NCBI GenBank assembly: GCA_016223025.1
Contig: JACRPU010000021.1
Span: forward strand, 14,380-78,379
DNA: 64,000 nt
DNA from: Nitrosomonadales bacterium
GTDB lineage: Bacteria > Pseudomonadota > Gammaproteobacteria > Burkholderiales > Gallionellaceae
Direction of reading: 5' to 3'
Program-made: the position numbers and the translations under genes
Part shown: one piece after another, positions 28,130 to 53,053 of the stretch
Layout of the letters: each line of letters starts with the position of its first letter
How positions within the stretch are numbered: the stretch's first letter is position 1
Notes under the pieces: generated by a model
The model's input: only the letters and a program-made list of their open reading frames with translations
The model's database searches: none
What the model was told of the DNA's origin: nothing

Positions 28130-29122
28130 TCATTTATATTCGATCAGGCGCGCCGTTTTTCCGGCCAGCCTGTTATGGAAAAATCTCAACTGGCCCGCTA
28201 CCTCCGGAAACTTGCACAGCACCAGAAACAGGGCGCGCCACCAGTTTTCGCTCGTGGATCGCGTGCCGCGCGAGGCGAGGCGGACGACTTGCGCGGGATA
28301 AATCAACAGTAGCGCCAGGCCCCAGGCTCCCATCCAGACAGACAGGGCCGCCGCGAGCGCCGGGATGCCAAGCCCCCACGCCCAGACGCGCCGGGATTCC
28401 TTTACGCGGTGCCGCTCCGGTGGCGAGCCGTGCAGATGCGCGCCCTCGGCATAGGCATATCCGCAACGCATGTTCCGCTTCCACCACTGCCCGAAACGGG
28501 TAATCGCGGCATCGTGCAGCGTCATTTCCTCGCCGAGCCTCCATATTTTCCAGCCTGCCGCCCTGAGCCGCACGCAGAGTTCCGGCTCCTCTCCGGCAAT
28601 CAGGCTGCCGCGATACCGCCCCGCACGCTCAAAAGCGCCAGCGCGCATCAATGCGTCGCCGCCGCAGGATTTCGCCTCGCCTACGGGAGTATCCCATTCG
28701 ATGTCACATAACATGTTGTACACGGAATGATCCGGAAAACGTTCGCGGCGGCGACCGCAAACTACGGCGACATCAGGGTGTTCATCGAGAAACCGGGTCG
28801 CTTTTTCCAGCCAGCCCGGCACAACCTCGCAGTCTCCGTCCACGAATTGCACATAGCCCAGTTCCGGCGCTATCTTGCACAGGCAAGCAAACCCCTCATT
28901 CCTTGCCCTGGCGGCCGTAAACGGAACGGACATATCCAGCCCGATCACCTCGACCCCGAGGGCGCGGGCCATCTCTACAGAGCCATCCGTGGAGCCGGAG
29001 TCCACATACACTATCTTGCCCGCCAGACCCACAACGGACAGGAGGCATTTGCGCAGGCGCTCGCCCTCGTTGCGGCCTATAGCCACGATTCCGACCGGTA
29101 AAATGGGGGCGCTTTCAATCAT
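28130..29122 (-). CDS. Glycosyltransferase family 2
   Basis: 330 aa. VAIGRNEGERLRKCLLSV...VYVDSGSTDGS and DGD motifs. Confidence 0.8.
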   Translation of the reverse strand: MIESAPILPVGIVAIGRNEGERLRKCLLSVVGLAGKIVYVDSGSTDGSVEMARALGVEVIGLDMSVPFTAARARNEGFACLCKIAPELGYVQFVDGDCEVVPGWLEKATRFLDEHPDVAVVCGRRRERFPDHSVYNMLCDIEWDTPVGEAKSCGGDALMRAGAFERAGRYRGSLIAGEEPELCVRLRAAGWKIWRLGEEMTLHDAAITRFGQWWKRNMRCGYAYAEGAHLHGSPPERHRVKESRRVWAWGLGIPALAAALSVWMGAWGLALLLIYPAQVVRLASRGTRSTSENWWRALFLVLCKFPEVAGQLRFFHNRLAGKTARLIEYK

Positions 29123-30008
29123 CCGGCAATGCCCATTCCAGTGATTTCGCCGCAGTTACCCGCTTGAAATTCCGGCAGTTCACGTCTGCGCCGAGCCATT
29201 TCCCCAACTGTGCCAGATCGCGGTCAAACTCCGCCTCCAACCGGCCGCGAGCCTCTTCGCCCAGGGCAGGGCGTTCCCGCATGCGCAATTTCATCTTGAT
29301 CGCATCGCGCAGGCTTTGCGGTATGAAGCGGCGGCGAAACCAGGTTGCCGGGGCGGAATCAACCAGCAGCCCGTACAGCGGAAATTTTCGGATACGCTCG
29401 CTGGAGACATTGTCCGGCTCCATATCCTTCACCCAGGCCGGCTGGCCCCGATAACCGATAAACCGGCAGATGCGCTCCAGCTCCGACTGGGGTTCATGAA
29501 CCAGGCGGTCGAAAAATACCGGCAACACGGCAGCGCGGCCAAAAGTGGCGAAATAGGGCTCAAGCTGCATGGCATAGCGGCCATAGGCGATCAACTCGGG
29601 ATATTGTTTTACCGCTTGCTCGATGCCGCAGTGATAAATTCCCGTGCTCCATTCATGCATGTAGTGAGAAACCAGGCGGTCCACCGGGTGGCGCATCACA
29701 TATACAAAGCGCGCATCGGGTAGATGTTCCTTCAAACGATCAACGGCATCGGGATGGGTGGGAAGCTTGGTGTAATGTGTGCTGGCCTCGCCCAGCAGGC
29801 TGCCTTGTGGCGCGCCGGCAAACAGGCCCGAATACCACGCCATGCCTCTGGCATACTGATCGGTGTCGCTGAAAAAGTTTGGCTCCTTCGGGATGCACAT
29901 GAATATGCCCGGCTGCACGGCCAGTTGCTTTTGCAGCGATGAAGTCGCCGACTTCATCGCACCGACGATGACGAAATCCGGCAAACGCAAACCAGGTTCT
30001 TTGTTCAT
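29115..30008 (-). CDS. Sulfotransferase family protein
   Basis: The ATG at 30008 overlaps the upstream stop (ATGA). PDFVIVGAMKSATSSL is the PAPS 5'-phosphosulfate binding loop, and a RHPVDRLVSHY region follows. Confidence 0.8.
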   Translation of the reverse strand: MNKEPGLRLPDFVIVGAMKSATSSLQKQLAVQPGIFMCIPKEPNFFSDTDQYARGMAWYSGLFAGAPQGSLLGEASTHYTKLPTHPDAVDRLKEHLPDARFVYVMRHPVDRLVSHYMHEWSTGIYHCGIEQAVKQYPELIAYGRYAMQLEPYFATFGRAAVLPVFFDRLVHEPQSELERICRFIGYRGQPAWVKDMEPDNVSSERIRKFPLYGLLVDSAPATWFRRRFIPQSLRDAIKMKLRMRERPALGEEARGRLEAEFDRDLAQLGKWLGADVNCRNFKRVTAAKSLEWALPDD

Positions 30009-30982
30009 GGGTTGGGCGGGGTATAGTGTTTTAGCGGATTGTGCCAGTTTGTCCAGATATCCAGCCATTGCCCTTCAATGGCCCCCTTGTCTGATCGCCC
30101 GAGCAATTGCCGGATCCCGGATACCGACCGCCCCGCCCACCACAGCAGGTTCGCGCTCATCATGCCAAACCAGCCGGAGGCCTGGTAATAGTATCGGGTG
30201 CGGGACTCGTAGAAATATCTGGGTACCCGTTTCTTTAATCGGGTCTGTTTTTTGACCGGCGAGCTTCCGCCGCGCAGATGCACGACCCGTGCATCGGGAT
30301 TATGCACGATCTCCCATCCGGCCTTGCGGGCGCGGCGGCAAAATTCCACATCCTCAAAATACATGAAATACCCCTCGTCCAGAAGGCCGACCTGCTGAAA
30401 CACTTCATCCGTCACCAGCACGCAGGCAAAACTGGTCCACTGGGGTCGCGCGATTTGTGTCTGCACCGGCAAGGCCACGATGTAACGGCTGAAACACCTG
30501 GAAATCAAGCCGGTTTGGGCGGCGGCGATCAGTTCGCTGAATGGGGTAGGGAACCGGAAACAGCTTTCCTGCCCGACGCCGTCCGGCCATTCGAGGCGCG
30601 GGCTGACCAGACCGGCCTCGGGGAAGCGCGTTGCGGTATCCAGAATGATCCGTATCGCTCCCGGGCGAATCAGGGTATCGCTGTTCAATAACAAATAATA
30701 ACGGGCATTGCAGGATTTGATCCCGATATTGTTGCCGGAAGCGAACCCGGAATTGTGTTCCGACTGAACAAAAAGAACTTTGTTGACAGCGTCATGCTGC
30801 GCCAGCCACGCTCGGATAATTTCGGGCGAGTTATCCGCCGAATGGTTATCCACGATGACGACCCGCGCATCCATGCCATCGAGTTCCGGCAGAAGCGTCG
30901 TCAGGCAGTCAATAACGAACGCCGGCGTGCGGAAATTCACTATGACAACGGATAACTGTGGCGACATCCGCATTGATTCCAT
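30005..30982 (-). CDS. Glycosyltransferase family 2 (rhamnosyltransferase-like)
   Basis: LSVVIVNFRTPAFVIDCL...VVIVDNHSADNS. Start ambiguous (30982, 30973 or 30967). Confidence 0.8.
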   Translation of the reverse strand: MESMRMSPQLSVVIVNFRTPAFVIDCLTTLLPELDGMDARVVIVDNHSADNSPEIIRAWLAQHDAVNKVLFVQSEHNSGFASGNNIGIKSCNARYYLLLNSDTLIRPGAIRIILDTATRFPEAGLVSPRLEWPDGVGQESCFRFPTPFSELIAAAQTGLISRCFSRYIVALPVQTQIARPQWTSFACVLVTDEVFQQVGLLDEGYFMYFEDVEFCRRARKAGWEIVHNPDARVVHLRGGSSPVKKQTRLKKRVPRYFYESRTRYYYQASGWFGMMSANLLWWAGRSVSGIRQLLGRSDKGAIEGQWLDIWTNWHNPLKHYTPPNP

Positions 30983-31011
30983 GCATATCCCGATATTTCA
31001 ACGACAGGCCC

Positions 31012-31180
31012 TAACGGGCATGTCGAGTAGCCACCCCTGATTATGAAACTCGCCATGCCCGTTTCCCTCACCCGTGCGTGGCTGTTGCCGCTTCAGCGGC
31101 TTTACAGCCACGGCCTGCCCCTTGCGGGTGCAACCCTCCCCCGCTGGCGGGAGAGGGGGCAAACGAATCGCTGCGCGAGA
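31012..31180 (-). mobile_element. Family B element, copy 3 with an extra nested hairpin insertion and an altered end
   Basis: TAACGGGCATGTCGAGTAGCCACCCCTGATTATGAAACTCGCCATGCCCGTTTCCCTCACCC, plus an inserted CGTGGCTGT...ACAGCCACG hairpin, then CCCGCTGGCGGGAGAGGGGGC...GCTGCGCGAG. Confidence 0.7.
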
Positions 31181-31231
31181 TTATGGTGGCATCACGCGCA
31201 ACGGTTTCTTGCGAGCATAGCTGTTCTAACG

Positions 31232-32563
31232 CTAAATCCGGGTAAGGGCGGGCCAGGCCTGCACCACGACCAACACCGAAACGGCAAGGAGTATCAGGTC
31301 GAGCTTGGGCTGCCATAATCCATTGCGGAACATCACGCAGGCATACAAAGGGTACACTACCCAGTTGGCCGCTGCCACACCCATCACGAGACCGCTTCCC
31401 CCGCCGAGGCGGTATCCGATAAACATCACGCTGAACTGGCATACGACCTGAATGGCGGTCAACAGCGTCGAGGTGGCAACCTTGCCCAGCGCCATCAATA
31501 CGCCCGCATAAGACCCCCACACACAAGCGGCGAGCAATCCGGCGGCGAGCTGCTCCAGCATGAGCCCCGAACCGTGATAACGCTCATCGTATAGTATTTC
31601 CATAACCTGAGAGCCAAAGAAGATGAATAGTACTGACAGGCTCAAACTGGGCAAAATCAGCAGCAACCGCGACTTGAACAGGACTGCCATGAAGTTTTTC
31701 GGGTTGCTGCGATAAGCCTCGGAATAGGCAGGAAAAAACACGCCCCACGCCAATTGCTGCATGGCCTGCCAGAACACGAGGTTCATGGTGCTCGCCAATG
31801 TAAACAGGGCCAGTTGGCGCATGTCAAGCAAAGCGCCGATTACCAGGCGCGCGCCCTCCAGCGACAGGAAAGTAAGGCCGGAACTTAACAGTATCCAGCG
31901 TCCAAACCCGATTAAATGATCGAGCGCACCGCGATCCCAGGCAAACTGATTCCTTATGCCACGCAGCAACAAATGGCTCGCAAACATTTTCAGGCTGGTT
32001 GTAATAACATGGCCCCAAACCAGCGCCCAAACTGAACGCTGTAGCCAGGCAAGATATACCGTGACGAGCAGCCCGATCGAGGAAGCGGCAACGTCAATCT
32101 GCGCAACCCGCGCCACCGCCAGATTGCGTTGCGCGCTGTACAGTTTGGTGGAGTTAAAGCCCTGGATAATTGCGCTCAATCCAACAACGGGGATCATGCC
32201 GGCAAGCAACGGCTCCCCATAAAGCTTGGCCAGGGGCAACGCCAGCGCGCAAAGCCCTCCCCAAACGAGAACGCCCCGCGCGATCTGGACGGTCCACGCC
32301 GTATTCAGGAAAACCGGATCGTTTCCCTGGTTCTTCTGGATAATCGAAGGGCCGATTCCCATATCGGTAAGCATATGCACGCCAAAGATCACGGCCTGAA
32401 CAACCGCCATCAAGCCAAACGCCTCCGGAAACAGCAGGCGCGTAAGAATGAGGTTCCCGCCCAGGCGCAAAGCCTGGTTTACGCCATATCCCGCCAGGGA
32501 CCAGGAACCGGACTGCAGGACACGCTGCTTGAGGGTGAGTGCGGGTTTTGATGAGGTTGGCAT
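31232..32563 (-). CDS. Polysaccharide/O-unit flippase (Wzx-like, MOP superfamily)
   Basis: 443 aa with about 12 or more TM segments. N-terminus ...SGSWSLAGYGVNQALRLGGNLILTRLLFPEAFG is typical of PST-family flippases. Confidence 0.75.
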   Translation of the reverse strand: MPTSSKPALTLKQRVLQSGSWSLAGYGVNQALRLGGNLILTRLLFPEAFGLMAVVQAVIFGVHMLTDMGIGPSIIQKNQGNDPVFLNTAWTVQIARGVLVWGGLCALALPLAKLYGEPLLAGMIPVVGLSAIIQGFNSTKLYSAQRNLAVARVAQIDVAASSIGLLVTVYLAWLQRSVWALVWGHVITTSLKMFASHLLLRGIRNQFAWDRGALDHLIGFGRWILLSSGLTFLSLEGARLVIGALLDMRQLALFTLASTMNLVFWQAMQQLAWGVFFPAYSEAYRSNPKNFMAVLFKSRLLLILPSLSLSVLFIFFGSQVMEILYDERYHGSGLMLEQLAAGLLAACVWGSYAGVLMALGKVATSTLLTAIQVVCQFSVMFIGYRLGGGSGLVMGVAAANWVVYPLYACVMFRNGLWQPKLDLILLAVSVLVVVQAWPALTRI

Positions 32564-32693
32564 TTATTTGAGGCGCTGGCGCGGCTAAGGTGCGGCCCTG
32601 TCACGGTCCGGCTGAATTTCGGGCAGGGCGCGCGAAGGATACGTTTTATAATGAAATACTATGCGAGCCACCTGAGACCACAGCAAATCTGAT

Positions 32694-34175
32694 ATGCCGC
32701 CATATATTGTTGTTCTCGTCCTTGCAATGGCCGTCTTTGTTACTGTTTACCGGCATGCCTTGGTTTTTACGGAGGCGGGGAATCTTACACGAAGACGGAA
32801 TCTTTGGCTCGCTTTGACGCTTTTGGCCTTCCTGGCGCCCAACTTCTGGGTGTACACATTCATCGCCATTCCGTTGCTGGTTTTCGCGAACAAACGCGAA
32901 CCTCATCCGGCTGCACTGTATTTCTTCATCCTGTTTGTGCTTCCCACAAGTGAAATTGTAGTCCCCGGAATGGGTGTGGTTGATTTTCTTTTCAGGCTTT
33001 CCCCTCCCAGACTGCTGGCGCTGTTCATTCTGTTTCCGGCATTTATTGCCCTGCGACGGCAAAGCGATTCCCTTCCCTTTGGGCGGACCGGGGCTGACAG
33101 GATGATTGCCGCCTATCTCTTTCTTGCAGTTGCACTGTTACTGCGCGATACCAATCCAACGAATGCCTTGCGCAATGCCTTTTACCTGTTCGTGGATGTA
33201 TTTCTGCCCTATTTTGTCTTTAGCCGCTCGCTGAAGAATATGCAAGCCTTCCGCGATGTGATATTGAGTTTCGTGGTGGCTGTCATGACCCTTGCCTTGA
33301 TCGCCGTTTTCGAGATATCCAAGCACTGGCTGCTCTACAGGGAACTGGATGGCAAACTTGGGCTGGAAGCAATTGGAGGGGGCTATCTTGAGCGCGAAGA
33401 AATGGCCAGGGCCGTTGCTTCAGCCTCCCAACCCCTCGCTTTGGGTTTTATCCTTGCGGTAGGAACGGGCTTTTATCTGTTCCTGCAACGATTCATCCAG
33501 CAAGCGCTCATCCGACAGCTTGGAATGGTGCTGCTGATTGCCGGATTAATTGCCCCTTTGTCGCGCGGCCCGTGGGTAGGTGCGGCGGTGTTACTGCTCG
33601 TTTTCTTTGCCACCGGACGCAACCCGGTACGCCGCGTGATGGCCTTTGCGCTTGCTGCGATGCTCACTTTTTCTTTGATAGCCGCGCTTCCCGGGGGCGA
33701 AAAGATAATTAACCTGTTGCCCTATATCGGTGAGACCGAAAAAGCAAACATCGAATACCGCGAGCAACTATTCACCAATTCGATGATCGTGATCCAGCGC
33801 TACCCGTGGTTCGGCTCCGACAATTACCTCGAAACACCAGAAATGGAGGCCATGCGCCAGGGCCAGGGCATCATAGACATCGTCAACAGTTACCTCCGCG
33901 TAACCCTGAGATCCGGGCTCGTGGGACTCGGCTTGTTTGTCGGGTTCTTTGCCCTGGTGCTCTCTGGCATATACCGGGCCATGCGCTCGATTCCGGACAG
34001 GGACAGCGAAGGATATCTGCTTGGCAGGGTGTTGCTGTCCACGTTGCTGGGTATTCTGGTAACCATCGCTACCGTGAGCAGCATTGGGTTTGTTCCGCTG
34101 GTGTACTGGCCCGTTGCAGGAATGGGGGCGGCATATGTCCAAATGGTGCGGAAGCAGATGGCAGCCGGGAATTAA
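32694..34175 (+). CDS. O-antigen ligase/polymerase-like membrane protein (Wzy_C-type)
   Basis: 493 aa polytopic protein. The LIAPLSRGPWVGAAV loop resembles the Wzy_C motif. Visibly lower GC. Confidence 0.6.
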   Translation: MPPYIVVLVLAMAVFVTVYRHALVFTEAGNLTRRRNLWLALTLLAFLAPNFWVYTFIAIPLLVFANKREPHPAALYFFILFVLPTSEIVVPGMGVVDFLFRLSPPRLLALFILFPAFIALRRQSDSLPFGRTGADRMIAAYLFLAVALLLRDTNPTNALRNAFYLFVDVFLPYFVFSRSLKNMQAFRDVILSFVVAVMTLALIAVFEISKHWLLYRELDGKLGLEAIGGGYLEREEMARAVASASQPLALGFILAVGTGFYLFLQRFIQQALIRQLGMVLLIAGLIAPLSRGPWVGAAVLLLVFFATGRNPVRRVMAFALAAMLTFSLIAALPGGEKIINLLPYIGETEKANIEYREQLFTNSMIVIQRYPWFGSDNYLETPEMEAMRQGQGIIDIVNSYLRVTLRSGLVGLGLFVGFFALVLSGIYRAMRSIPDRDSEGYLLGRVLLSTLLGILVTIATVSSIGFVPLVYWPVAGMGAAYVQMVRKQMAAGN

Positions 34176-34278
34176 GCGCCGCCCAGAAAATTTCTGCATT
34201 CGCAGAAGGGCCTTCATTTTACGTTGCGAGAACTTTGCTGCGCTGGTTTTGCCGCGAGTTCGTGTGCGCGGAAGCCAA

Positions 34279-35361
34279 TCAACGCGCTGCCCAGAAGAGC
34301 AGTTTACGCGGTGGCACAAAAAGCCATTTAAGGCCAAGTTTCGGCGCCAAAACTGCCACCAGTAACGGCACACCAACGCCAAAGAGCATCCCTAGCGCAA
34401 GATGCAGGCTAACATCGGTTATTCCAAAGAGTTTCTGCAGCACAATCCGGATACCGCCTGAGCATATGGTATGAACCAGATAGATTTCCATTGAGTGGCG
34501 GCCGAGAAATGCCAGCCACCGCATTTCAAATCTTGCCAGCAAGCGGCATGAGGCCATGACGAAAGCGATCCCGGAAAATGCGAGCAGCAGACGGAACTGC
34601 TCGCCACCGTTGCCCAAATTGTCGGGCAAGCCATGAAATAGGTATTGGCTTCCCACGAATACCAAAGCAGCCAACAAGAATATCAACAGCGCCCGATATT
34701 GGGCCGCATCGCCGCGAAACAGTAAGCTGCTGGCGCTGACACCGAGAGCAAAAAAGACAAAGCTCCTGCCGAATAAATTAATCGTGTGGTAATTGATGGA
34801 AGGCAAACCAGAAAAATACAGAATCACCGCCAAGGCCAGGATCGCCGTTGACCAGTAGATATCGTTTCGGCGATACAAAGCTGCTGAAGCCAGGTATATG
34901 AAGAACAGTGTGTAAAGAAACCAGAACTGGGCGCGAGGCAACCACAGCAATGACAGCACCTGCCCAAGCGTGGCAGCACCATTGGTAAAGTCCGCGAGCG
35001 CAACCTCTATCAACCCCTGGACCAATGACCAGATGATATAGGGGTAGAAAACCACTTCAAATTTGTTTTCGATCAGCTTGCGGCCACCGCGCCTCGCCAG
35101 CGACCCGGGGAATAACGCTCCTGAAAGAAAGAAAAACAGTGGCATGTGAAAGCTGTAAATGACACTTTCTATCAGCTCGTGCCATTCTCTGTCCATGGGA
35201 AGCTTTGCGCTTAGTAAGCCATGTGCCACATGACCATATACGACCAAGAGAATGCCGATTCCCTTGGCATAATCAAATACGATGTTTCGCTCAATGATCA
35301 AGTTCAGGTTTGCCCGTGGTGGGAAATAGGCTTTCTGTGAACTATCCCCAGTGTCACGCAT
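34279..35361 (-). CDS. Membrane acyltransferase family 3
   Basis: NIVFDYAKGIGILLVVYGHV start motif and about 10 TM segments. An alternative TTG start at 35301 would remove the overlap with the upstream gene. Confidence 0.7.
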   Translation of the reverse strand: MRDTGDSSQKAYFPPRANLNLIIERNIVFDYAKGIGILLVVYGHVAHGLLSAKLPMDREWHELIESVIYSFHMPLFFFLSGALFPGSLARRGGRKLIENKFEVVFYPYIIWSLVQGLIEVALADFTNGAATLGQVLSLLWLPRAQFWFLYTLFFIYLASAALYRRNDIYWSTAILALAVILYFSGLPSINYHTINLFGRSFVFFALGVSASSLLFRGDAAQYRALLIFLLAALVFVGSQYLFHGLPDNLGNGGEQFRLLLAFSGIAFVMASCRLLARFEMRWLAFLGRHSMEIYLVHTICSGGIRIVLQKLFGITDVSLHLALGMLFGVGVPLLVAVLAPKLGLKWLFVPPRKLLFWAAR

Positions 35362-36233
35362 TCGATATTTTTTTTATCCAGCCCCTCATATTTCTTGTTA
35401 ACTCTCACGCGGACTGGCTGGAACAGGGATTCTTCTTCCACCAATTCAAATCCTGCCTGGCTGAAAAGATTCAACCACTCTTCCCGCTGCACCCGGTTGA
35501 AATACTGGACATCGTTTTCAAAGCAGAGCTTCCACGCGGCATCCGAATATTTCAGGTAATTCTTTTTGCAAACGCTCTGATCGTAAATTTCGAGATGGTC
35601 TGTGAGGTCAATTGTTATGAAAGAGTAGCCGCCGGGTTTCAGCAAGCGATAAATATCCTTGATATATTCGGGAAGGATTGCCTGGTCAATGTGTTCAAAG
35701 ACATTGCAGCTGAAACAGGCGTCATAGGTTTCCGGTCCGAGTTTGCGAAGCGTTCCGGTCGGCTCGATCACATACCGAAACCCCAGCAAGTCGTATAAGC
35801 CGGCAAATGAATGCGCCGTTACAATTGCCTCCAGCAGTTTTCGCGCTTCCTTGTGCCTGGGTGAGGATATTCCTATTTCATTATCGAAAACATCGCAAAG
35901 CCCGGAAGCGTAGGCTTTGTACGCCTGGAATTGCCGGTTATCCCAAACGTCGAACAGCGTGAATTCTGCATTGTAGAATAGCCTCAATACCGTTGACTCC
36001 CAATGAACCCACCCTGTTCCCAGCTCGATTAGCTTGGCGCCTTCTTGCGGGATATTGTATTTCTCGAAAATGCTCAATATCCGCTTTGCGCGATATACAT
36101 AGCTTGCGGGAAGACCGGCTTTCGCACGGCTTCTTGCCCCGACGGTGTTCCCCAGAAAACGGTACATCTTTTTTGTCTGGGGCGACAACGAGAATATTTT
36201 CAGTGCACATGCGGTTGCGAGGTATTTGATCAT
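35304..36233 (-). CDS. Class I SAM-dependent methyltransferase
   Basis: 309 aa. LIELGTGWVHW (motif I-like) and LLKPGGYSFITID. Low GC. Confidence 0.65.
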   Translation of the reverse strand: MIKYLATACALKIFSLSPQTKKMYRFLGNTVGARSRAKAGLPASYVYRAKRILSIFEKYNIPQEGAKLIELGTGWVHWESTVLRLFYNAEFTLFDVWDNRQFQAYKAYASGLCDVFDNEIGISSPRHKEARKLLEAIVTAHSFAGLYDLLGFRYVIEPTGTLRKLGPETYDACFSCNVFEHIDQAILPEYIKDIYRLLKPGGYSFITIDLTDHLEIYDQSVCKKNYLKYSDAAWKLCFENDVQYFNRVQREEWLNLFSQAGFELVEEESLFQPVRVRVNKKYEGLDKKNIECVTLGIVHRKPISHHGQT

Positions 36234-36432: not shown

Positions 36433-36948
36433 CTACGCCGGTTCTTGCGCGAGGCGCGCCCGATAAAGCGCGAGGTCGCTCGCCGAGAAACAGCAGAAAA
36501 TCACTTCCTGCAACGAGCGCGGCGTGCGCAGGAATTCCCGCACCGCCGCGACGGCCACGTCTGCGGCCTGCTCCGGCGGATAGCCGTAGACACCGGTGCT
36601 GATGCAGGGAAACGCGATGCTGGCGAGCTGGCGCGAGGCGGCGAGCGCCAGGCTTGCCCGGTAGCAGGAAGCCAGCAGCCCCGCTTCATTTTTCGTGCCG
36701 CCATGCCAGACCGGGCCGACGGTATGGATGACGAACTTCGCCGGCAGCCTGTAACCGTGCGTGAGCCTGGCCTGGCCGGTCGGGCAGCCTCCCAGGGAGC
36801 GGCATTCCTGCAACAGCTCCGGCCCGGCCGCGCGGTGGATGGCGCCATCCACGCCGCCGCCCCCCAGCAGGGAAGAATTCGCCGCGTTGACGATGGCGTC
36901 AACCTTCAGCCGGGTGATGTCGCCCTGGAGCGCTCGCAGCATGGTCAT
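36433..36948 (-). CDS. ymdB: Macro-domain O-acetyl-ADP-ribose deacetylase
   Basis: 171 aa. [30 protein letters not shown] and [12 protein letters not shown] motifs. Confidence 0.85.
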
Positions 36949-38381
36949 GGACAGCCCTCATGAAAAATTTCTCCGGCGCATTGTATTCCGCTCATCACCG
37001 CGCTTTCCAGCGTGGCCGGGTAATCGCCCGCCGTGTAGTCCCCTGCCAGCAAGACATTGCTCAGCGGCGTGGTGTGGGCGGGGCGCGCGAGGCCGGGTTC
37101 GCAGGAAAAAGTGGCGCGTTTTTCGGCGATGACCTGGTGCCATAGCGGCATTGCCGTGATGCCGAGTCGCTCGCGCAATTCCTGCACCACTTTCTGCGCG
37201 AGTTGCTCGTGTTCCAATTCCTGGTGCAATCCTTCCGCGCTGATGACGGCGGCAATCAGGCCATGCTGCCCGGCGATTCGCCCCTTGTCGAACAGCCATT
37301 GTGCGAAGCCGCGGTCCAGGCCCAGCATGGGGTGAGGCAAGCGCACGGCCTCGTGGTATTGCAGATAGACGGTGTAGATGGGCTGGAAGGCCAAGGCCGC
37401 AATCTGTGCTGCGACGGGCGCGAGCTGCGGCACGGCGCGGAACAGGCGCGCGGAAGAGGCGGGCGAGGCCGCGCAGATGGCGTGGCTGAACAAATTGGTG
37501 CGTAAAACGCACCCTGCATCCCGCGTGGCAGTTAATTCGATTGTATCGCCATGCGGAACAATGGCTTCCACGCTGCAAGAGGTATGCACCGTGCCGCCGT
37601 GTTGTTTGACATATTCCGCAGCCCTGTCCGGAAACAGTGCGGAAAAATTGACGCGCGGCAACAGGATGTCACTATCCGGGCGTGAACCGTTCAGGCTGTC
37701 ACGCAGCACGTTCAGCAACACTTGCGCGGACGCCTTGCGAACCGGGGTGTTGAGCGCGGCGATGCAGATCGGCTCCCACAGCAGGCGGGCCAGTTCTTCA
37801 TCCTGGTTGTGGGTGCGCAACAGGTCATGCGCAGTCGTGTCGCGCGGCAATATGAACCGTATGCGGCGCAGGGCGAGCATGAAGCGCGCGGCGCTGAACC
37901 GCTGCGCGAACGACAAGCCCTGCGCAGTCAGCAGTCCGGCCAGCATAACCAGCGAGCTGGCTGGCGTTGTTTGCCAGCCTGCTCGAATGGCTAGTTGTTC
38001 TATCAGGTGCAGCGGGGCGGGGAGGTGCGGCGCTTTCAGTTCAAATCGGTTGTGCAGGGTGAGTTGCAGCGGCAGGCGCAGGAAGTCATCTCCGATATTG
38101 CCGCCGACCTGCCCGATGAGTTTCAGCGTGTGGCGGTAGCAGCCGAGCAGGATGTGCTGGCCGTTGTCGAGCTGGGTGCCGTTGTGCCACACGCCGCGCG
38201 CGCGCCCGCCAAGCTGCTTTGCGCTCTCGAATACCGTGACGGGGATGTCCCTGGCGGAGAGCGCGACAGCGGCAGCCATGCCCGCATAGCCGCCGCCGAT
38301 AATGGCCAGATTCAATCCATGATTTTTACGATTGCCCCCTCTCCCTCCGGGGGAGGGTTGGGGATGGGGAGTCGTATTCAA
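36945..38381 (-). CDS. hpnE: Hydroxysqualene dehydroxylase HpnE (FAD amine-oxidase fold)
   Basis: [17 protein letters not shown] Rossmann motif. Follows hpnC and hpnD. The start is uncertain: the first 20 or so codons are a palindromic repeat ([13 protein letters not shown]), and a TTG just before NLAIIGGG is an alternative. Confidence 0.8.
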
Positions 38382-39211
38382 TTACTGACCCAGGTCTTCC
38401 ACGCCAGCCACAGCTTGCGCAGCGGAGTGAGCGAGATGCGCTCTTTTAGTACATGGCAACCGCTGGCAACGATCTCATCCAGCGTGGCGCGGTAGATCGC
38501 CGCCATGGCGAGGCCGGCGCGCTGCGCCTTGCGGTCTGCCGCAGGCAATTGCTCGAATGCTTGCCGGTAGTAGCTCTGCGCGCGCTCGATCTGGAACTGC
38601 ATCAGCTTCTGGAAGCCCTCGGTTTCGCGCCGGTTCAGGATATCGTCCGGGCTGACGCCGAACCGGTGCAGCTCGTCCAGAGGCAGATAAATGCGCCCGC
38701 GCCGCGCATCTTCGGCCACGTCGCGGATGATGTTGGTGAGCTGGAAAGCCAGCCCAAGATCGTGCGCGTACTGGAGCGTTTTGCGGTCGCCGTAGCCGAA
38801 TATTTCTGCGGCGAGCAGGCCGACCACCGAGGCGACGCGGTAGCAATACAGTTGCAGGGCTTTGAAGTCGTCATAGTGCCGTCGCTGCAAGTCCATTTCC
38901 ATGCCGTCTATGATCTCGATCAGTTGCTCCCCGGGCAGGTTGAATTGCCTGGCTACCGGCGCCAGGGCTTGAGCCACGGGATGCTGCGGCTTGCCTTCGT
39001 ATATCGCCGCCACTTCGCTGCGCCACCATGCCAGCGTGGCACGCGCCACATTTTCGTCCGAGCATTCGTCCACCACATCGTCCACTTCGCGGCAAAAGGC
39101 ATACAGCGCGGTGATGGCGCGGCGCTTGTCCGGCGTCAGAAAAAGGAAGCTGTAGTAGAAGCTGGAGCCGCTTTGGGCGGCTTTGCCCTGGCAGTACTGG
39201 TCGGGGGTCAT
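38378..39211 (-). CDS. hpnD: Presqualene diphosphate synthase HpnD
   Basis: 277 aa. SSFYYSFLFL...ALYAFCREVDDVVD squalene/phytoene synthase motifs. Confidence 0.85.
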   Translation of the reverse strand: MTPDQYCQGKAAQSGSSFYYSFLFLTPDKRRAITALYAFCREVDDVVDECSDENVARATLAWWRSEVAAIYEGKPQHPVAQALAPVARQFNLPGEQLIEIIDGMEMDLQRRHYDDFKALQLYCYRVASVVGLLAAEIFGYGDRKTLQYAHDLGLAFQLTNIIRDVAEDARRGRIYLPLDELHRFGVSPDDILNRRETEGFQKLMQFQIERAQSYYRQAFEQLPAADRKAQRAGLAMAAIYRATLDEIVASGCHVLKERISLTPLRKLWLAWKTWVSN

Positions 39212-39217
39212 TTTGAG

Positions 39218-40033
39218 TCAGAAAGAAAACGGCGCACTTTTTCCCAGCATGATAACCCAGTCGAGCGGGCGCAACACCGGGCGGTGGCGGAACATGTCGA
39301 ACCGCGCGCTTTCCAGCTTGTTGAGTATGCGGTTGCCGCCCGCGATGATGAGGCGCATTTCCAGCCCGATACGCCCGGTGAGTATGCTGCCGAGCGGCGC
39401 CCCGCTCTTCATCATGTCGCGCGCGCGCTGCACCTGGAACTGCATCAGCTCGCGCCAGGCCGCATCCGCGCGGCCTTCGGCAATGCGCCTTTCGGTCACG
39501 CCGAAGCGCGCCATTTCATCCTGCGGCAGGTAGATGCGCCCGATGGCGTAATCCCTGGCCACGTCCTGCCAGAAGTTGATGAGCTGCAAGCCGGTGCAGA
39601 TGGCGTCGGAATACGCCACGTTTGCTGGTGTGGCTTCTTCGTACAGATGCAGCAGCAACCGGCCCACCGGGTTGGCCGAGCGGCGGCAGTAATCCTGTAC
39701 CTCGTCAAAATTGGCGTAGCGTTTTTTGACTACATCCTGCGAGAAGGCATCGAGCAGGTCGTGGAAAAGTTGCAGCGGTAACTGGTGTTGCGCAACGACC
39801 CCGGCTATATCGTGGAACAAGGGAGTTTGCGGCGTTTCACCAGATGCAACGCGCTCCAGCTCGGCGCGAAAGCCATCCAGTTTCGCCAGGCGCTCTTCGT
39901 TGGAAATGTCGCCCTCATCGGCGAAGTCGTCGGCCTGGCGCGCAAAACGGTAGATAGTTTCCACCGGTCGCCGCAGGCGCCTGGGCAGCAGGATGGAGGC
40001 GACCGGGAAGTTTTCGTAATGGTCAACGGCCAT
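39218..40033 (-). CDS. hpnC: Hydroxysqualene synthase HpnC
   Basis: 271 aa. MAVDHYENFPVAS...IYRFARQADDFADEG. Confidence 0.85.
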   Translation of the reverse strand: MAVDHYENFPVASILLPRRLRRPVETIYRFARQADDFADEGDISNEERLAKLDGFRAELERVASGETPQTPLFHDIAGVVAQHQLPLQLFHDLLDAFSQDVVKKRYANFDEVQDYCRRSANPVGRLLLHLYEEATPANVAYSDAICTGLQLINFWQDVARDYAIGRIYLPQDEMARFGVTERRIAEGRADAAWRELMQFQVQRARDMMKSGAPLGSILTGRIGLEMRLIIAGGNRILNKLESARFDMFRHRPVLRPLDWVIMLGKSAPFSF

Positions 40034-40709
40034 TATTGGCGGCTAGCGAGCGTAGCTTGCTCGTCCATTCGCGGAAGTGTACGCACTCAGCTTCCATAAC
40101 GGGTAATGTTATGCGCTCTGCACCGAGTGGCCCATGGCGTGTTTTTTGATACTTTGGCCGCAACAAGCTTTCAAGCCTGCGCGACGGTTTGGTTTCAAGG
40201 TTGTCGTTGATATGTTCTGGTGTTTGGAAAGAGTTGCGGACAGCAGAAAGCTTGAGAAGATAGCTATGCCATGTTGGTTCAACGTCACATAAAGCTGCCA
40301 CATTTGAAAAAAGCAACCCTTCGAATTCATATGGCTGAATGTGTGGAATAAAGCGCTCAGGTCGGCAACCGGCATATTCAACAATTGCTTGGTGAAGTGC
40401 GCTTTCCAAGCAGGCTGTTCGCGTGTAGATGTCTGATTTATCTTTCGCATCCAGATAAGCAGGAAAGTTGGTCTCTAGTGCATAGAGATCAAGGAATGTG
40501 CTCAACACTGTGTTGGGATTTTGTCGCAATGTGTTGCGTGCATTGAATTTGAGCCGGTCAAAACTGACCGCCCCACCGTATGCATCCCGTGATGTTTTGA
40601 GCATTTGCGGCTTTACAAATACTTGCGCAGGCCGCAGCGATGGAGCAACAACACGCTTTATGAATTGTTCTTCGGTAGGTCCTTCAGCAAAGACAATGAC
40701 ATCTGCCAT
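40023..40709 (-). CDS. DUF4276-like protein (Toprim-like N-terminal motif)
   Basis: The ATG at 40709 is 1 nt after the ATPase stop. MADVIVFAEGPTEEQFIKRV resembles the hhhhEG-TE start of DUF4276 and OLD-type Toprim domains. Its last 11 nt overlap the hpnC start. Low GC. Confidence 0.65.
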   Translation of the reverse strand: MADVIVFAEGPTEEQFIKRVVAPSLRPAQVFVKPQMLKTSRDAYGGAVSFDRLKFNARNTLRQNPNTVLSTFLDLYALETNFPAYLDAKDKSDIYTRTACLESALHQAIVEYAGCRPERFIPHIQPYEFEGLLFSNVAALCDVEPTWHSYLLKLSAVRNSFQTPEHINDNLETKPSRRLESLLRPKYQKTRHGPLGAERITLPVMEAECVHFREWTSKLRSLAANNGR

Positions 40710-40710
40710 G

Positions 40711-41793
40711 CTACGGCCTCCCGCCCAAGACATTGCTTTTCCATAGCTCCCCCATGGAATACTGCTCCAGCCAGCCAGCCAGTTCATTTTGGGTAAAGCG
40801 TTTGAAGGTTGATGCACCATCTTGTTGATCTACCACAATCACGTCCTCTGGCGACAGCTCATTAATAAGCTCAACAGATTGCGTGGATACGATGAGCTGG
40901 CGATTCTCGGACACCTTCTTAAAGATTTCGGCGAGCACCGTGATGGCGTAGGGGTGTAGCCCTAACTCCGGCTCGTCAATGAGAATGGTGTGGGGCAAGA
41001 GGGCTGTTGGTTGTAGTAGCAAAGTTGCCAGGCAAATAAAGCGCAACGTACCGTCGGATAGCATGTGCGCTTTGAAGGGGATGTCGGGCTTACCTTTTTG
41101 TGTCCATTCCAATGCTATGAATTCAGTATCATCAGAACGATGCACGAAATCATCGAAAAATGGGGCGACCAGATGGATGGCATCAACAATACGTTGGTAT
41201 TCCTTAGGGTATTTAGCCTTCAGCATCCGCAGGTATGGAGCTAAATTCGCCGCATCTGGCAGTAAGCGCAGATTGAGATTGGAAGCCTGAGGTTGCTTGA
41301 CCTTGGCGTTCTCGCTGGTGTCATGGAAATGGTATACACGCCAATTGCTTACTGATGGGCGCACATAAGGCGAGTATTTGTCTTTTGCTTCTTTAAGCTT
41401 TGATTCGTCATGCCCCACCCCAAGTGTTGCACTTGGAGTGGTATCGAAAAATATGCCTCTAAACCAACTGATTTCTCTTTCAAATATTAATCGGTTGTCG
41501 TTGGTTGGTATGAGATCAAATTTGTAACCGTTGCGATCAAAATAAAATTCGGCATGTAATTTGTCTGTGGTTTGTCGTCCGAAATGTAGCAGCGCATCCG
41601 GCCCCCCTTGTTTTTGGATAAACACCTGCAATTGCTGCTCGTACATTTCGTTCAGCAGACGGAATAGGCCTATAAAATTACTTTTCCCTGCACCGTTGGC
41701 ACCAATCAACACATTGAGATCAGTTAATTTGAAATCTCGCAGCTCACGGATTGACTTATAGCCAGTTATTGTTAAGGAGAGAACGCCTGACAT
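40711..41793 (-). CDS. ABC/AAA_15-like ATPase (SMC-like, OLD/PARIS-type ATPase architecture)
   Basis: ATG at 41793 (AAGGAAA RBS). Walker A GANGAGKSN, signature-like LSDGTLRF, Walker B ILIDEPELGLHP. Low GC. Confidence 0.8.
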   Translation of the reverse strand: MSGVLSLTITGYKSIRELRDFKLTDLNVLIGANGAGKSNFIGLFRLLNEMYEQQLQVFIQKQGGPDALLHFGRQTTDKLHAEFYFDRNGYKFDLIPTNDNRLIFEREISWFRGIFFDTTPSATLGVGHDESKLKEAKDKYSPYVRPSVSNWRVYHFHDTSENAKVKQPQASNLNLRLLPDAANLAPYLRMLKAKYPKEYQRIVDAIHLVAPFFDDFVHRSDDTEFIALEWTQKGKPDIPFKAHMLSDGTLRFICLATLLLQPTALLPHTILIDEPELGLHPYAITVLAEIFKKVSENRQLIVSTQSVELINELSPEDVIVVDQQDGASTFKRFTQNELAGWLEQYSMGELWKSNVLGGRP

Positions 41794-41806
41794 GTTTTTC
41801 CTTACG

Positions 41807-42715
41807 CTAACAAAGAATGTCGCTGCGATGCAGCATAAACACAAATTCATCCCCCGCGCTGACCTCCAGCCAGGTGAACGGCAGCTCGGGGCAGGCGGCT
41901 TCCAGCGCGGCGCGGTTGTGGCCGACTTCCACGATCAGCACGCCATCTGGCGTCAGGTGTGCGGCGGCAAGCCTGAGAATCTCGCGCGTGGCATCCAGCC
42001 CGTCGGCCCCGCTGCCCAGCGCAAGCAAAGGCTCGTGCCGGTATTCCTGCGGCAGCGCGGACAGGGATTGCGCGTCCACATAAGGCGGGTTGCTTATGAT
42101 GATGTCATATTGCCTGCCACCCAGCCTGGCGAACAGATCGGATTCAATCAGGTGAACGCGGTCTTCCAGACCATAGTCGTCCACGTTGCGCTGCGCTACA
42201 TCCAGCGCGGCTGGGGATATATCCACCGCATCCACCTCGGCATGGGGGAAGGCGTGCGCGGCAAGGATGGCGAGGCAGCCGCTGCCGGTGCATAAATCCA
42301 GCACCCGCGTTACGTTTTCCGGGTTGTCCAGCCACGGAGCGAGTTGTTCGCGCAACAGTTCGGCGATGAAGGAGCGCGGCACGATCACGCGCTCGTCCAC
42401 ATAAAAGCGGAAATCGCCCAGCCAGGCTTCGTGCGTCAAATAGGCTGCCGGTATGCGGTTCCCGACCCGTTTTTCGATGATATTCAGCACTTCATCCAGC
42501 TCGGCTCGCGTGAGTCTGGCATCGAGGAAGGGGTCCAGGCGATCCGGCGGCAGGTGCAGGGTGTGCAGGATGAGGTAGGCGGCCTCATCGTAGGCCGTTT
42601 CGCTGCCGTGGCCGAAAAACAGCCCGTTCCGGTTGAACCGGCTGACCGCGAAGCGCAGGCAATCCCGCACCGTTACCAGCGCGTCGCGCGCGTCGGCAAG
42701 AAAGCTGGCATCCAT
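41807..42715 (-). CDS. prmB: Ribosomal protein L3 N5-glutamine methyltransferase
   Basis: 302 aa. VLDLCTGSGCLAI and ISNPPYV motifs with a PrmB-type N-terminus. Confidence 0.88.
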   Translation of the reverse strand: MDASFLADARDALVTVRDCLRFAVSRFNRNGLFFGHGSETAYDEAAYLILHTLHLPPDRLDPFLDARLTRAELDEVLNIIEKRVGNRIPAAYLTHEAWLGDFRFYVDERVIVPRSFIAELLREQLAPWLDNPENVTRVLDLCTGSGCLAILAAHAFPHAEVDAVDISPAALDVAQRNVDDYGLEDRVHLIESDLFARLGGRQYDIIISNPPYVDAQSLSALPQEYRHEPLLALGSGADGLDATREILRLAAAHLTPDGVLIVEVGHNRAALEAACPELPFTWLEVSAGDEFVFMLHRSDILC

Positions 42716-42812: not shown

Positions 42813-43955
<1,143 letters not shown>

Positions 43956-51410: not shown

Positions 51411-51896
51411 CTATGCGCCTATCTTATTTTCTTCAAAAAATTGAATCAGATTTAGATGTCTGACGCGAAGTTCTTTACATACTTCCCCTAAGCCATAATC
51501 AGCAAGTTTCTTGGTTTCGCCAGACACAACCGTACAACCATCTACATTTCTAGCGAGCGCAATAACCCAAGGATCGGCACCAATCATGAATCTGTCTCGC
51601 TGCTTATTAACGAGAAAAACATCATTCCTTGCTTCAATCTCACCCACTATAGAGCCATATTCATGCTCGACCTCCTCGCTCATACGAAACATTTTGTCCG
51701 CGCGCAAGATGAAATCTTTTCGCCAGTCGTCAGCTTTCTTTTCTAGCTCGATTTTTACAAAATCGACGGAGATTATTCCGTTGTGATCTATGCCTTGGTA
51801 CAAGTGATCCCAAATTGGGGCAAAGACTGGCAAGTGCGCTGGGTAATGTCGCTCCCCTAAACTAACCAATGCTGAAGTGTCGAGGCAATATTTCAT
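51411..51896 (-). CDS. DUF4411 (PIN-like nuclease) protein
   Basis: 161 aa. MKYCLDTSALVSL... and GADPWVIALA motifs as I recall for DUF4411. Its start overlaps the upstream stop. Confidence 0.7.
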   Translation of the reverse strand: MKYCLDTSALVSLGERHYPAHLPVFAPIWDHLYQGIDHNGIISVDFVKIELEKKADDWRKDFILRADKMFRMSEEVEHEYGSIVGEIEARNDVFLVNKQRDRFMIGADPWVIALARNVDGCTVVSGETKKLADYGLGEVCKELRVRHLNLIQFFEENKIGA

Positions 51897-53053
51897 TAGC
51901 GCATATTTGAAAGTAGCCTATCGATTTTCTTCACCCTCAAATTGAGGATGTTTGAAGCATCGAACACATTAAGTAATCCAGTGGAGTAGGCCTCCAAAAC
52001 TGTATTAAACATGGGACGCCCCAAGTCTATGCGCATCAATATTTCTCTGGGTATCTTTACTTCTACTTTCTGGGTTGTGTGAGTTCTCTCATTTGCATTT
52101 TTCCGTAGTTCCAGAAGATGAGCCAGTTCTTGTTGGTTAATTAAATTAATTCTCTTTAGACATACGGCGGCTGTCGAATAGGTGACCTTAAAGATTTTTG
52201 AAAGGGCCTCCATTTTTTCAACCAAGTTCATACCCTGATAGTCAGCAAAATTAATCTTTTCTGACGGGACCAATATCTCGGCTGCGATTCGGTTGCAGCT
52301 TACTTCCAGTTGAGTTTCGGGTGAATTGATTGCGTCAATGATTTGAGCGCGAGCGTCATTTATTGCAGATTGGCCGATAAGCAAATGAGCATACTCATGT
52401 AGTAGTGTGAACAATCTTCGCTCATTAAAGTACCCCCCTCTCTTCAGAAGGATGATCGGACAGGACTCGTAAAAAATCGCGGCACCTATGACACCTGAAG
52501 CATCAGGGATGTATTGAGACTCGTAAACAAGGACGCCATCATTTTCAATTTTTTCTTTCCAGAATGCATACGCCTCATCGTAAGTTAAAGCGTCAATTTC
52601 CGCATCTAGTATGCCGAGTCGTTTTCGTACGATACTTCCAATATTTTTTTCGAGCTCAGCCACGGGGAGTAATTGGAATAGTTTTATTGGGACATCAAGT
52701 CTAATTGCTAAATCAATGAATACTTCCCTGCGATCACGACACTTTTTAATTTCAAGGTTTAATCTGTAATGGTCGGCACCAGCCAAGCCCGGTTCAATAC
52801 GGAAATCCGGCATTGGGGTGTACGTTTTTTCGCGAGGTGGTTTTGATAAATAGAAATAACCAAAAGGGAAATCAAATTTCTCCGCTGCTTTTCGGAGCTG
52901 ATTCAACGTCAAGGGCTTCTCACCAGATTCTGCCGCTTGAAGTGTTTCGACAGACACTCCTATAGCTTCGGCTGCTTGCTCAAGCGTATAGCCGACCTCT
53001 TCACGTGCCCAAATAAGCATCTTTGAGTTATTGCTTGTTCTGATGGTGGACAT
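51896..53053 (-). CDS. XRE-HTH fused to ImmA/IrrE (COG2856) zinc metallopeptidase
   Basis: N-terminal HTH (GYTLEQAAEAIGVSVETLQAAESG) and HEYAHLL HExxH motif. Low GC. Confidence 0.8.
   Translation of the reverse strand: MSTIRTSNNSKMLIWAREEVGYTLEQAAEAIGVSVETLQAAESGEKPLTLNQLRKAAEKFDFPFGYFYLSKPPREKTYTPMPDFRIEPGLAGADHYRLNLEIKKCRDRREVFIDLAIRLDVPIKLFQLLPVAELEKNIGSIVRKRLGILDAEIDALTYDEAYAFWKEKIENDGVLVYESQYIPDASGVIGAAIFYESCPIILLKRGGYFNERRLFTLLHEYAHLLIGQSAINDARAQIIDAINSPETQLEVSCNRIAAEILVPSEKINFADYQGMNLVEKMEALSKIFKVTYSTAAVCLKRINLINQQELAHLLELRKNANERTHTTQKVEVKIPREILMRIDLGRPMFNTVLEAYSTGLLNVFDASNILNLRVKKIDRLLSNMR

Follow-up and report, generated by a model that had tools for sequence, protein, structure and literature searches.

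The PARIS structure paper extended the group of systems that couple an ATP-binding cassette (ABC) ATPase with a Toprim protein by adding AbiL and MADS3-4, and PARIS itself provides a working model for such pairs, in which an ATPase scaffold sequesters a nuclease until a phage trigger frees it and tRNA-Lys is cleaved, the last being a feature of PARIS. A further candidate is HEC-01 (Hma-embedded candidate 01), an ABC ATPase and TOPRIM pair found within Hma systems (Payne et al., bioRxiv 10.1101/2024.01.29.577857). Here, we analysed a 64,000-nt stretch of contig JACRPU010000021.1 from a Nitrosomonadales bacterium of the Gallionellaceae (hereafter the window), in which two adjacent genes on the minus strand, encoding an ABC-type ATPase (protein A; 40711-41793) and a DUF4276 protein (protein B; 40023-40709), are inserted between the housekeeping genes prmB and hpnC. 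Judged by profile matches, the two genes are HEC-01, an already catalogued candidate anti-phage pair. The cassette is horizontally acquired, and we consider it probable (roughly 60%) that it acts as an anti-phage system, or one directed against other mobile genetic elements, in which the ATPase controls a DUF4276 nuclease effector.

Published work on this family is brief. Payne et al. superposed HEC-01B on the Toprim metal site of BpOLD, and the representative that they tested protected against none of the coliphages used. In a cold-seep metagenome study, a cloned HEC-01 locus is one of four candidates listed as giving E. coli B protection from T4, T5 or T7 (one or more of these phages). In the Menshen study, DUF4276 and RloB were classed as new Toprim members, with Mad4 of MADS identified as a DUF4276 protein, and the DUF4276 domains considered there are said to retain both the glutamate and the DxD motif. 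Full-text literature searches for DUF4276 and HEC-01 returned no mechanistic study. With one negative and one positive report, the defence activity of HEC-01 is unsettled.

The assignment to HEC-01 relies on full-length profile agreement. Protein A matches the PADLOC HEC-01A model (PDLC04175) with an E value of 2.9e-147 over residues 5-360 of 360 (model positions 7-362 of 363), and protein B matches HEC-01B (PDLC04188) at 1.1e-68 over residues 1-223, while other PADLOC models are much weaker for A (AriA, 1.8e-26; mad3, 1.1e-25; AbiLi, 1.3e-24; Old, 3.6e-17; GajA, 1.4e-13). Among Pfam families, AAA_21 was found in A (E 4.1e-29), and DUF4276 (PF14103; E 1.9e-47, 162.5 bits against a cutoff of 30.2) is the sole match of B. 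Of 87 related loci that were listed, 70 have the order A then B on one strand, nearly always with gaps of 1-26 nt; the exceptions are contig-end, truncated or frame-disrupted copies. A preliminary description of this DNA, made from the letters alone, had proposed an ABC-type ATPase with a DUF4276 partner as a candidate defence module. Both protein families are borne out by the AAA_21 and PF14103 profiles and, for the ATPase, by Foldseek, and the pair does belong to a candidate defence family. The novelty implied there did not survive, as the pair is a named PADLOC system, was tested by Payne et al. and has Mad3-Mad4 relatives in MADS. The accompanying statement that the pairing had not been experimentally characterised holds for the mechanism and fails for the naming and first tests; of the refuting condition given there, a system already named and characterised, only the first half applies.

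The cassette is fitted tightly into its site, with spacings of 13 nt between prmB and A, 1 nt between A and B (position 40710) and -11 nt between B and hpnC. Upstream, prmB (50S ribosomal protein L3 Gln-N5 methyltransferase; 41807-42715, minus; TIGR03533, 431.5 bits, cutoff 229.7; native composition with a GC of 0.63) is followed by a 13-nt leader (CGTAAGGAAAAAC; 41794-41806, minus) with a Shine-Dalgarno-like AAGGA. The gene for A (360 amino acids) extends from its ATG at 41793 to a stop codon at 40711-40713, and that for B (228 amino acids) from its ATG at 40709 to the end of the open reading frame (ORF) at 40023. At the right junction, the last codons and TGA of B overlap the start of hpnC (squalene synthase HpnC; ATG 40033; 39218-40033, minus; TIGR03464, 373 bits, cutoff 250) by 11 nt (AATAATGGCCGTTGA; 40023-40033, minus). 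The start codons at 41793 and 40709 are common to all homologues; the longer starts given by the ORF finder (41850 and 40820) were therefore rejected. The window proteins are identical to MBI5658506-8, and an assembly artefact was rejected because the same arrangement recurs across many independent assemblies.

Base composition marks the insert clearly. In 400-nt windows, GC is 0.42-0.51 in the cassette and 0.60-0.65 in both flanks, with the left boundary of the drop falling within the 13-nt leader. Per gene, GC is 0.47 for A and 0.48 for B compared to 0.61-0.64 for dapE, prmB, hpnC, hpnD and hpnE, and GC at third codon positions (GC3) is 0.51 and 0.44 compared to 0.74-0.79 for the same five flanking genes. 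The order dapE-prmB-hpnCDE, all on one strand, is kept in relatives and is interrupted here by the cassette. The coordinates and gene order of the preliminary description were thus confirmed, including the single nucleotide between A and B, the hpnC ATG 11 nt inside the DUF4276 ORF and the higher AT content of the pair; the spacer separating prmB from the ATPase gene measures 13 nt rather than the 14 nt given there, a trivial correction.

Protein A carries a Walker A motif (G31-ANGAGKS-N39), an ABC signature (L245-SDGT, residues 245-249) and a Walker B motif (I270-LIDEPE, residues 270-276), within which K37, S246, D247, G248, D273 and E274 are invariant across 50 homologues. The motifs read earlier from the sequence (GANGAGKSN, LSDGT and LIDEPELGLHP in the ATPase and VIVFAEGPTEEQF in the partner) are all present. 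A Foldseek search with an AlphaFold2 (AF2) model of A, which has a predicted local distance difference test score (pLDDT) of 73, returned PtuA of retron Ec83 and Septu as the best match (E 1.6e-12), followed by the heads of RecN, SMC and Rad50 to 1e-10, at a probability of 1.00. These results show A to be an SMC/Rad50/PtuA-like ABC head ATPase with intact catalytic motifs.

Protein B is more difficult to place. Its AF2 model (pLDDT 93.4) comprises an N-terminal beta-alpha-beta-alpha-beta-alpha-beta arrangement (residues ~1-125), an order that fits Toprim, and, behind it, a helical C-terminal domain. In 118 representatives that are 30-65% identical, E9, G10, F16, D74, E128, P164, E165, P175, F212 and W215 never vary, and E13, G45, G46 and E130 hardly do. 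E9 (in VIVFAEG) ends modelled strand 1 (residues 2-8), in the position of the conserved Toprim glutamate, and D74 ends modelled strand 3. From their conservation, E128 and E130 could be further metal ligands. A model search against viral structures (BFVD) gave an RloB-like protein as the top match (E 0.023, probability 0.97), with a weak template modelling (TM) score of 0.43-0.45. In an alignment by hhalign of the deep DUF4276 profile with P2 Old, EG-TE is paired with VEGKTE and GG with GKG; the Old segment concerned (394-444) is the start of its Toprim domain, as judged from the VEGKTE/DGKG/DCD motifs.

Our own tests did not confirm a Toprim fold, which counts against the effector role proposed below. 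The DxD motif reads D-L-Y here, the family consensus is DxYGLP and the second aspartate is missing family-wide. In the PDB, the best Foldseek E value for the B model was 0.024 and no Toprim protein stood among the leading matches, profile searches of PDB sequences with shallow and deep B alignments found nothing, and the P2 Old alignment just mentioned (B residues 5-57) has a probability of only 1.4%. Likewise, hhalign of the DUF4276 profile to a GyrB Toprim was not significant, and BLASTP of B against the Old Toprim region found nothing. Old homologues sought on plasmids as material for a Toprim profile gave matches that mostly end before the DxD region. The earlier suggestion of a Toprim/OLD-like partner is therefore supported by the literature (Payne, Menshen) and not by our own Foldseek, profile and hhalign searches, whose best match is the RloB-like protein. 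We treat B as a putative Toprim-like metal-dependent nuclease effector, with the Toprim assignment taken from these two papers.

Compared with described systems, the window pair resembles HEC-01 most closely, having the same A-B order, tight spacing and combination of an ABC ATPase with a DUF4276/TOPRIM-like partner. The type lies within Hma and other defence operons, whereas here the pair sits within the housekeeping string dapE-prmB | hpnCDE. MADS, which Maestri et al. reportedly described in 2024 as a system of eight genes, contains a similar module, Mad3-Mad4, in which an AAA_15/21 ABC ATPase adjoins a DUF4276 protein. However, A scores only 101.8 bits against the NCBIfam MAD3 model (NF047739; cutoff 420), so the pair is not a MADS orthologue; it is also a stand-alone cassette with prmB and hpnC as neighbours and no other mad genes such as the methylase. 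PARIS likewise encodes a split ABC ATPase (AriA) and a small Toprim-family partner (AriB) in adjacent genes, but AriB belongs to DUF4435, for which B has no match, and PADLOC assigns B to HEC-01B models only. The AriA match of A arises because the AriA model aligns as Pfam AAA_21 does, at the same 304 positions (residues 26-311), and with 360 amino acids the window ATPase is far shorter than AriA (53-55 kDa in published work).

AbiL shows the same logic of an ATPase (AbiLi) with a Toprim-superfamily partner (the RloB-like AbiLii), and an RloB-like protein is the nearest, if weak, structural neighbour of HEC-01B; the window partner is nevertheless DUF4276 rather than RloB (PF13707). PtuA of Septu and retrons provides the solved structures nearest to the A model (9e90, 9n69 and 8eea; E ~1e-12), and both systems combine an ABC ATPase with a separate small nuclease, but PtuB is an HNH nuclease and A shares only 12-17% sequence identity with PtuA. 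OLD and GajA of Gabija again combine an ABC ATPase with Toprim. Here, the N-terminal VFAEGPTEE of HEC-01B resembles LLVEGKTET of P2 Old, although without statistical significance. A single polypeptide carries both domains in OLD and GajA, and the motif is DxD, whereas the window has separate genes, D-x-Y in B and no adjacent helicase (GajB in Gabija).

To place the insertion in context, we scanned PrmB in one genome per species, which yielded 80 loci (Gallionellaceae, Sideroxydans, Nitrotoga, Sulfuricella, Thiobacillus and Nitrosomonas). The prmB|hpnC junction is empty in 20 of them, with hpnC 2-19 nt after prmB and some genes overlapping as TAATG. HEC-01 occupies the same junction in ten other Gallionellaceae-like loci: L008 from the genome set, L081/82 and L083/84 found via the closest ATPase homologues, and L088, L090, L092, L100, L104, L119 and L135 on metagenome contigs. 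In every Gallionellaceae HEC-01 locus, the cassette has a GC of 0.43-0.50 compared to 0.51-0.63 in the flanks. The junction also holds other cargo, namely a complete type II restriction-modification (R-M) system in L028 (6880-9284), consisting of an Eco57I-type methylase (PADLOC E 9.4e-180) and a BsuBI/PstI endonuclease (8.4e-130), and a methylase alone in L034 (6874-8325). Because R-M cargo is found at the same site in these two loci, the junction behaves as a small defence hotspot. As a separate observation, the prmB-hpnC spacer of L064 (6865-7016) and L011 (6249-6367) is ~120-150 nt long and contains inverted repeats (GGATTCCCGCTTTCGCGGGAATGAC); this element looks like a repetitive extragenic palindromic (REP) sequence or a miniature inverted-repeat transposable element (MITE).

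Cassette and host histories disagree. Trees were built by neighbour-joining on simple distances with 100 bootstraps. In the cassette tree (A and B concatenated), the window groups with L081 in 100/100 replicates and L088 with L090 in 98/100, whereas the host tree (DapE, PrmB, HpnC and HpnD) recovers both groups in 0/100. Instead, the host tree pairs L081 with the empty-site locus L056 (100/100) and L088 with the empty-site locus L002 (100/100; 93% amino acid identity), and in no replicate do the HEC-01-bearing hosts form one clade (0/100). For the slot-resident cassettes taken together, monophyly (23/100) is neither supported nor excluded. This conflict indicates that the cassette moves between lineages into this slot and, together with the 20 empty relatives, upholds the foreign insertion proposed earlier, for which an empty junction was to be sought. 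Nucleotide identity between the window and L081 rises from ~0.70 in the flanks to ~0.81 within the cassette, stepping up at the cassette boundaries. Their proteins are 88% (A) and 82% (B) identical at the amino acid level, and identity at four-fold degenerate sites is only 0.47 and 0.61, showing that both genes are under strong purifying selection. Between all other slot copies, four-fold degenerate sites are saturated, and a recent sweep among all slot copies was rejected on this ground.

The junction sequences fall into types shared across different loci, which suggests mosaic slot alleles: the 11-nt overlap at the right junction is common to the window and its sister copy L081, TGA-ttatttA-ATG is common to six other loci, and the left leader of the window resembles those of L092 and L119 (TAAGGG-N-AAnC-ATG). 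Decay is also visible. L135 equals L104 minus an internal 1,034 bp (4633-5666 in L104, missing at ~2056-2060 in L135) and is otherwise 99.8% identical; HEC-01A has lost its 3' third to this natural deletion, and HEC-01B the greater part of its length. Since this deleted copy coexists with the intact L104, the cassette is dispensable and decays.

A transposon or integron-like insertion was considered and rejected, as there is no integrase or transposase adjoining the cassette, no direct or inverted repeat flanking it, no tRNA gene or Rfam family in the window and no conserved non-coding end across 40 cassette copies. Guidance of insertion by homology between prmB (a HemK-type methylase) and the mod genes preceding other copies was also set aside; the upstream sequences of the copies share nothing obvious. 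The simplest reading is a slot polymorphic for presence and absence, whose alleles are moved by homologous recombination via conserved gene ends. A more general proposal, which we advance tentatively and regard as possible rather than probable, is that prmB|hpnC in Gallionellaceae is a recombinase-free cassette exchange slot, in which defence cargo with no predicted promoter (several HEC-01 lineages, a PstI-type R-M pair or a lone methylase) would be swapped by homologous recombination and expressed by host read-through.

No sigma-70-like promoter site was predicted within the insert, and the region scanned contains 11 terminator-like matches, no more than a chance level (8.3 expected). In the absence of a predicted promoter and of a convincing terminator, we infer that the pair is expressed by host read-through and translationally coupled to its neighbours. 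Ribosome-binding signals precede both genes (AAGGA before A; GGGAGG before B, inside the end of A), and the prmB-hpnC spacing of relatives leaves no intergenic promoter space. Given the tight spacings, the lack of a promoter-like site and of above-chance terminators, the earlier remark that hpnCDE must be transcribed through foreign DNA is a reasonable inference.

Beyond this junction, the pair is widespread. Homologues of A number at least 8,000 matches, the best 120 of which are 74-94% identical and include Thiocystis, Acidithiobacillus, Polaromonas and Panacagrimonas; the best 120 homologues of B are 64-89% identical and include Desulfuromonadales, Competibacteraceae, Magnetococcales and Thiocystis. 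DUF4276 comprises 2,680 representatives when clustered at 50% identity, and the best 150 of these are all stand-alone proteins of at most 250 amino acids without fusions. Among Beta-, Gamma- and Deltaproteobacteria, A is 74-82% identical, which is striking for a putative immune sensor, and B just 64-71%. Defence contexts include a position between mod and res of type III R-M systems (Thiocystis; L089 and L105), after type I HsdR in a human-gut clade, after an MmeI-like enzyme, and beside a reverse transcriptase or large helicases. Solo pairs are found beside the housekeeping genes lpdA, hisA/F, gyrB, leuS, glnD or glmM. In the type III R-M and prmB|hpnC copies alike, the cassette abuts its neighbours, either within a few nt or with stop and start codons that overlap. 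Among 2.9 million viral contigs scanned, one carried a distant homologue (50% identity), indicating that the cassette is not typically phage-borne. The Thiocystis copy (L085, 6001-7083) has a host-like GC3 of 0.73; AT-richness is therefore not intrinsic to these genes.

By analogy with PARIS (AriA-AriB) and Septu/retron (PtuA-PtuB), we propose an ATPase sensor that controls a Toprim-like nuclease. Protein A would form a complex with the DUF4276 protein and hold it inactive until a phage-derived cue, sensed via ATP binding or hydrolysis, releases or activates the nuclease. The nuclease may then cut either RNA (tRNA or another species, as PARIS does) or DNA (as OLD and Gabija do), which would halt the infection and probably cost the cell something. 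In this model, the cassette would spread among related species by homologous recombination via the 3' end of prmB and the 5' end of hpnC, and the same slot would exchange other defence cargo. In favour of a defence role stand the R-M and other defence neighbourhoods of close homologues, the positive test in E. coli B and the listing of Mad3-Mad4 and AbiL among ABC ATPase and Toprim systems. Apart from the Toprim results given above, several points speak against this model. The negative test by Payne et al. is one, and the cold-seep text gives no effect size for HEC-01 and mentions the AAA_21 domain alone. Both published tests used other homologues, neither from this subfamily nor in this host. 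The dispensability seen in L135, the simple distance method behind the trees and the indecisive monophyly of the slot cassettes weaken it further.

Could the pair instead be selfish? An addiction or toxin-antitoxin-like module without an anti-phage role, in which loss of the cassette or an imbalance of A and B would unleash the nuclease and embedding would secure expression and co-inheritance, strikes us as unlikely. It would explain why the largest phage test, that of Payne et al., showed no defence, and it suits a cassette without predicted promoter or mobility genes that is always packed tightly, in housekeeping and defence contexts; the same authors raised a selfish benefit of embedding, and Pfam describes AAA_21 as "putative AbiEii toxin, Type IV TA system". 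However, a natural population tolerates the L135 deletion, in which A lacks its C-terminal third and little of B is left, and empty alleles are common in close relatives. One study also reports phage protection, and the related ABC ATPase and Toprim pairs (PARIS, AbiL and MADS3-4) are regarded as defence. Less credible still is an orphaned sub-module that needs a larger system (MADS, type III R-M or Hma) and persists between prmB and hpnC as inert, decaying cargo. Strong purifying selection in the solo context argues against inertness, as do the family-invariant residues, all of which are intact, and the frequency of solo pairs beside housekeeping genes in several phyla; the low MAD3 score and the treatment of HEC-01 in PADLOC as a self-contained two-gene system point the same way. 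What speaks for a sub-module is that many close homologues lie between type III mod and res or beside HsdR or MmeI-like enzymes, that DUF4276 homologues are MADS components and that a deletion derivative exists (L135).

An ancestral, vertically inherited housekeeping pair that was lost many times, for example a DNA-repair function with a RecF/RecN-like ATPase and a nuclease, is largely refuted, and we give it hardly any weight. The recurrence of the pair at this one junction (at least 11 loci), the 23/100 for slot-cassette monophyly and the saturation of four-fold sites between most copies would be compatible with such an origin. Yet cassette and host trees conflict (100/100 compared to 0/100), hosts that are 93% identical differ in presence and absence, and GC3 of the cassettes has stayed at 0.40-0.51 against flanks of 0.54-0.87 despite saturated synonymous sites. 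Moreover, Gamma- and Deltaproteobacteria carry the same pair, its ATPase 74-82% identical, among unrelated neighbours, and in other relatives R-M genes occupy this slot.

As one more HEC-01 locus, the window pair leaves the knowledge of defence systems unchanged, and HEC-01, a widespread pair of disputed activity, is a reasonable target for biochemistry. The added value lies in the slot, which is embedded in an operon and recombinase-free and gives clear evidence of lateral exchange and decay: a single tight core-gene junction that is empty in 20 relatives, holds HEC-01 lineages in at least 11 loci and R-M genes in two amounts to a natural experiment. It shows embedded defence cassettes colonising housekeeping operons too, where they would rely on host transcription through read-through, and it bears on how cassettes without mobility genes spread and could be found. 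If the exchange slot proves true and general, "guilt by embedding" would apply to core-gene operons as well as to defence operons, new immune genes could be sought by looking for seamless AT-rich inserts in junctions that are otherwise invariant, and expression of the hopanoid-precursor genes hpnCDE would be coupled to carriage of an immune cassette.

The remaining genes of the interrupted string, all on the minus strand, are dapE (42813-43952; NF009557, 557 bits), hpnD (38378-39211; 403 bits against a cutoff of 279) and hpnE (36945-38381; 431 bits against 283); PrmB, HpnC, HpnD, HpnE and DapE all score above their own NCBIfam equivalog cutoffs. Directly downstream of hpnE and overlapping its end at 36945, a gene on the minus strand (36433-36948) encodes a Macro-domain protein (PF01661, E 5.4e-49), whose product is possibly an ADP-ribose-processing enzyme co-transcribed with hpnCDE. 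Window positions ~29100-36233 hold a surface-polysaccharide cluster of lower GC (0.47-0.58), in which an acyltransferase_3 and an S-adenosylmethionine (SAM) methyltransferase were confirmed by Pfam and, from reading the translations, a sulfotransferase-like protein, a GT2 glycosyltransferase, a Wzx-type flippase and an O-antigen ligase/polymerase-like membrane protein were recognized. A second two-gene cassette of low GC (0.43-0.46) lies at 51411-53053 (minus), flanked by genes for an ABC-F ATPase and a transglycosylase-like protein. Its first gene (51896-53053, 385 amino acids) encodes HTH_3 and Peptidase_M78 domains (ImmA/IrrE, HEYAH motif) and has weak PADLOC matches (RmrA, 1.7e-11; capP, 2.4e-09); the second (51411-51896, 161 amino acids), overlapping the first by 1 nt, encodes a PIN-like DUF4411 protein with no PADLOC match. 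This second cassette is a candidate toxin-antitoxin or defence pair.

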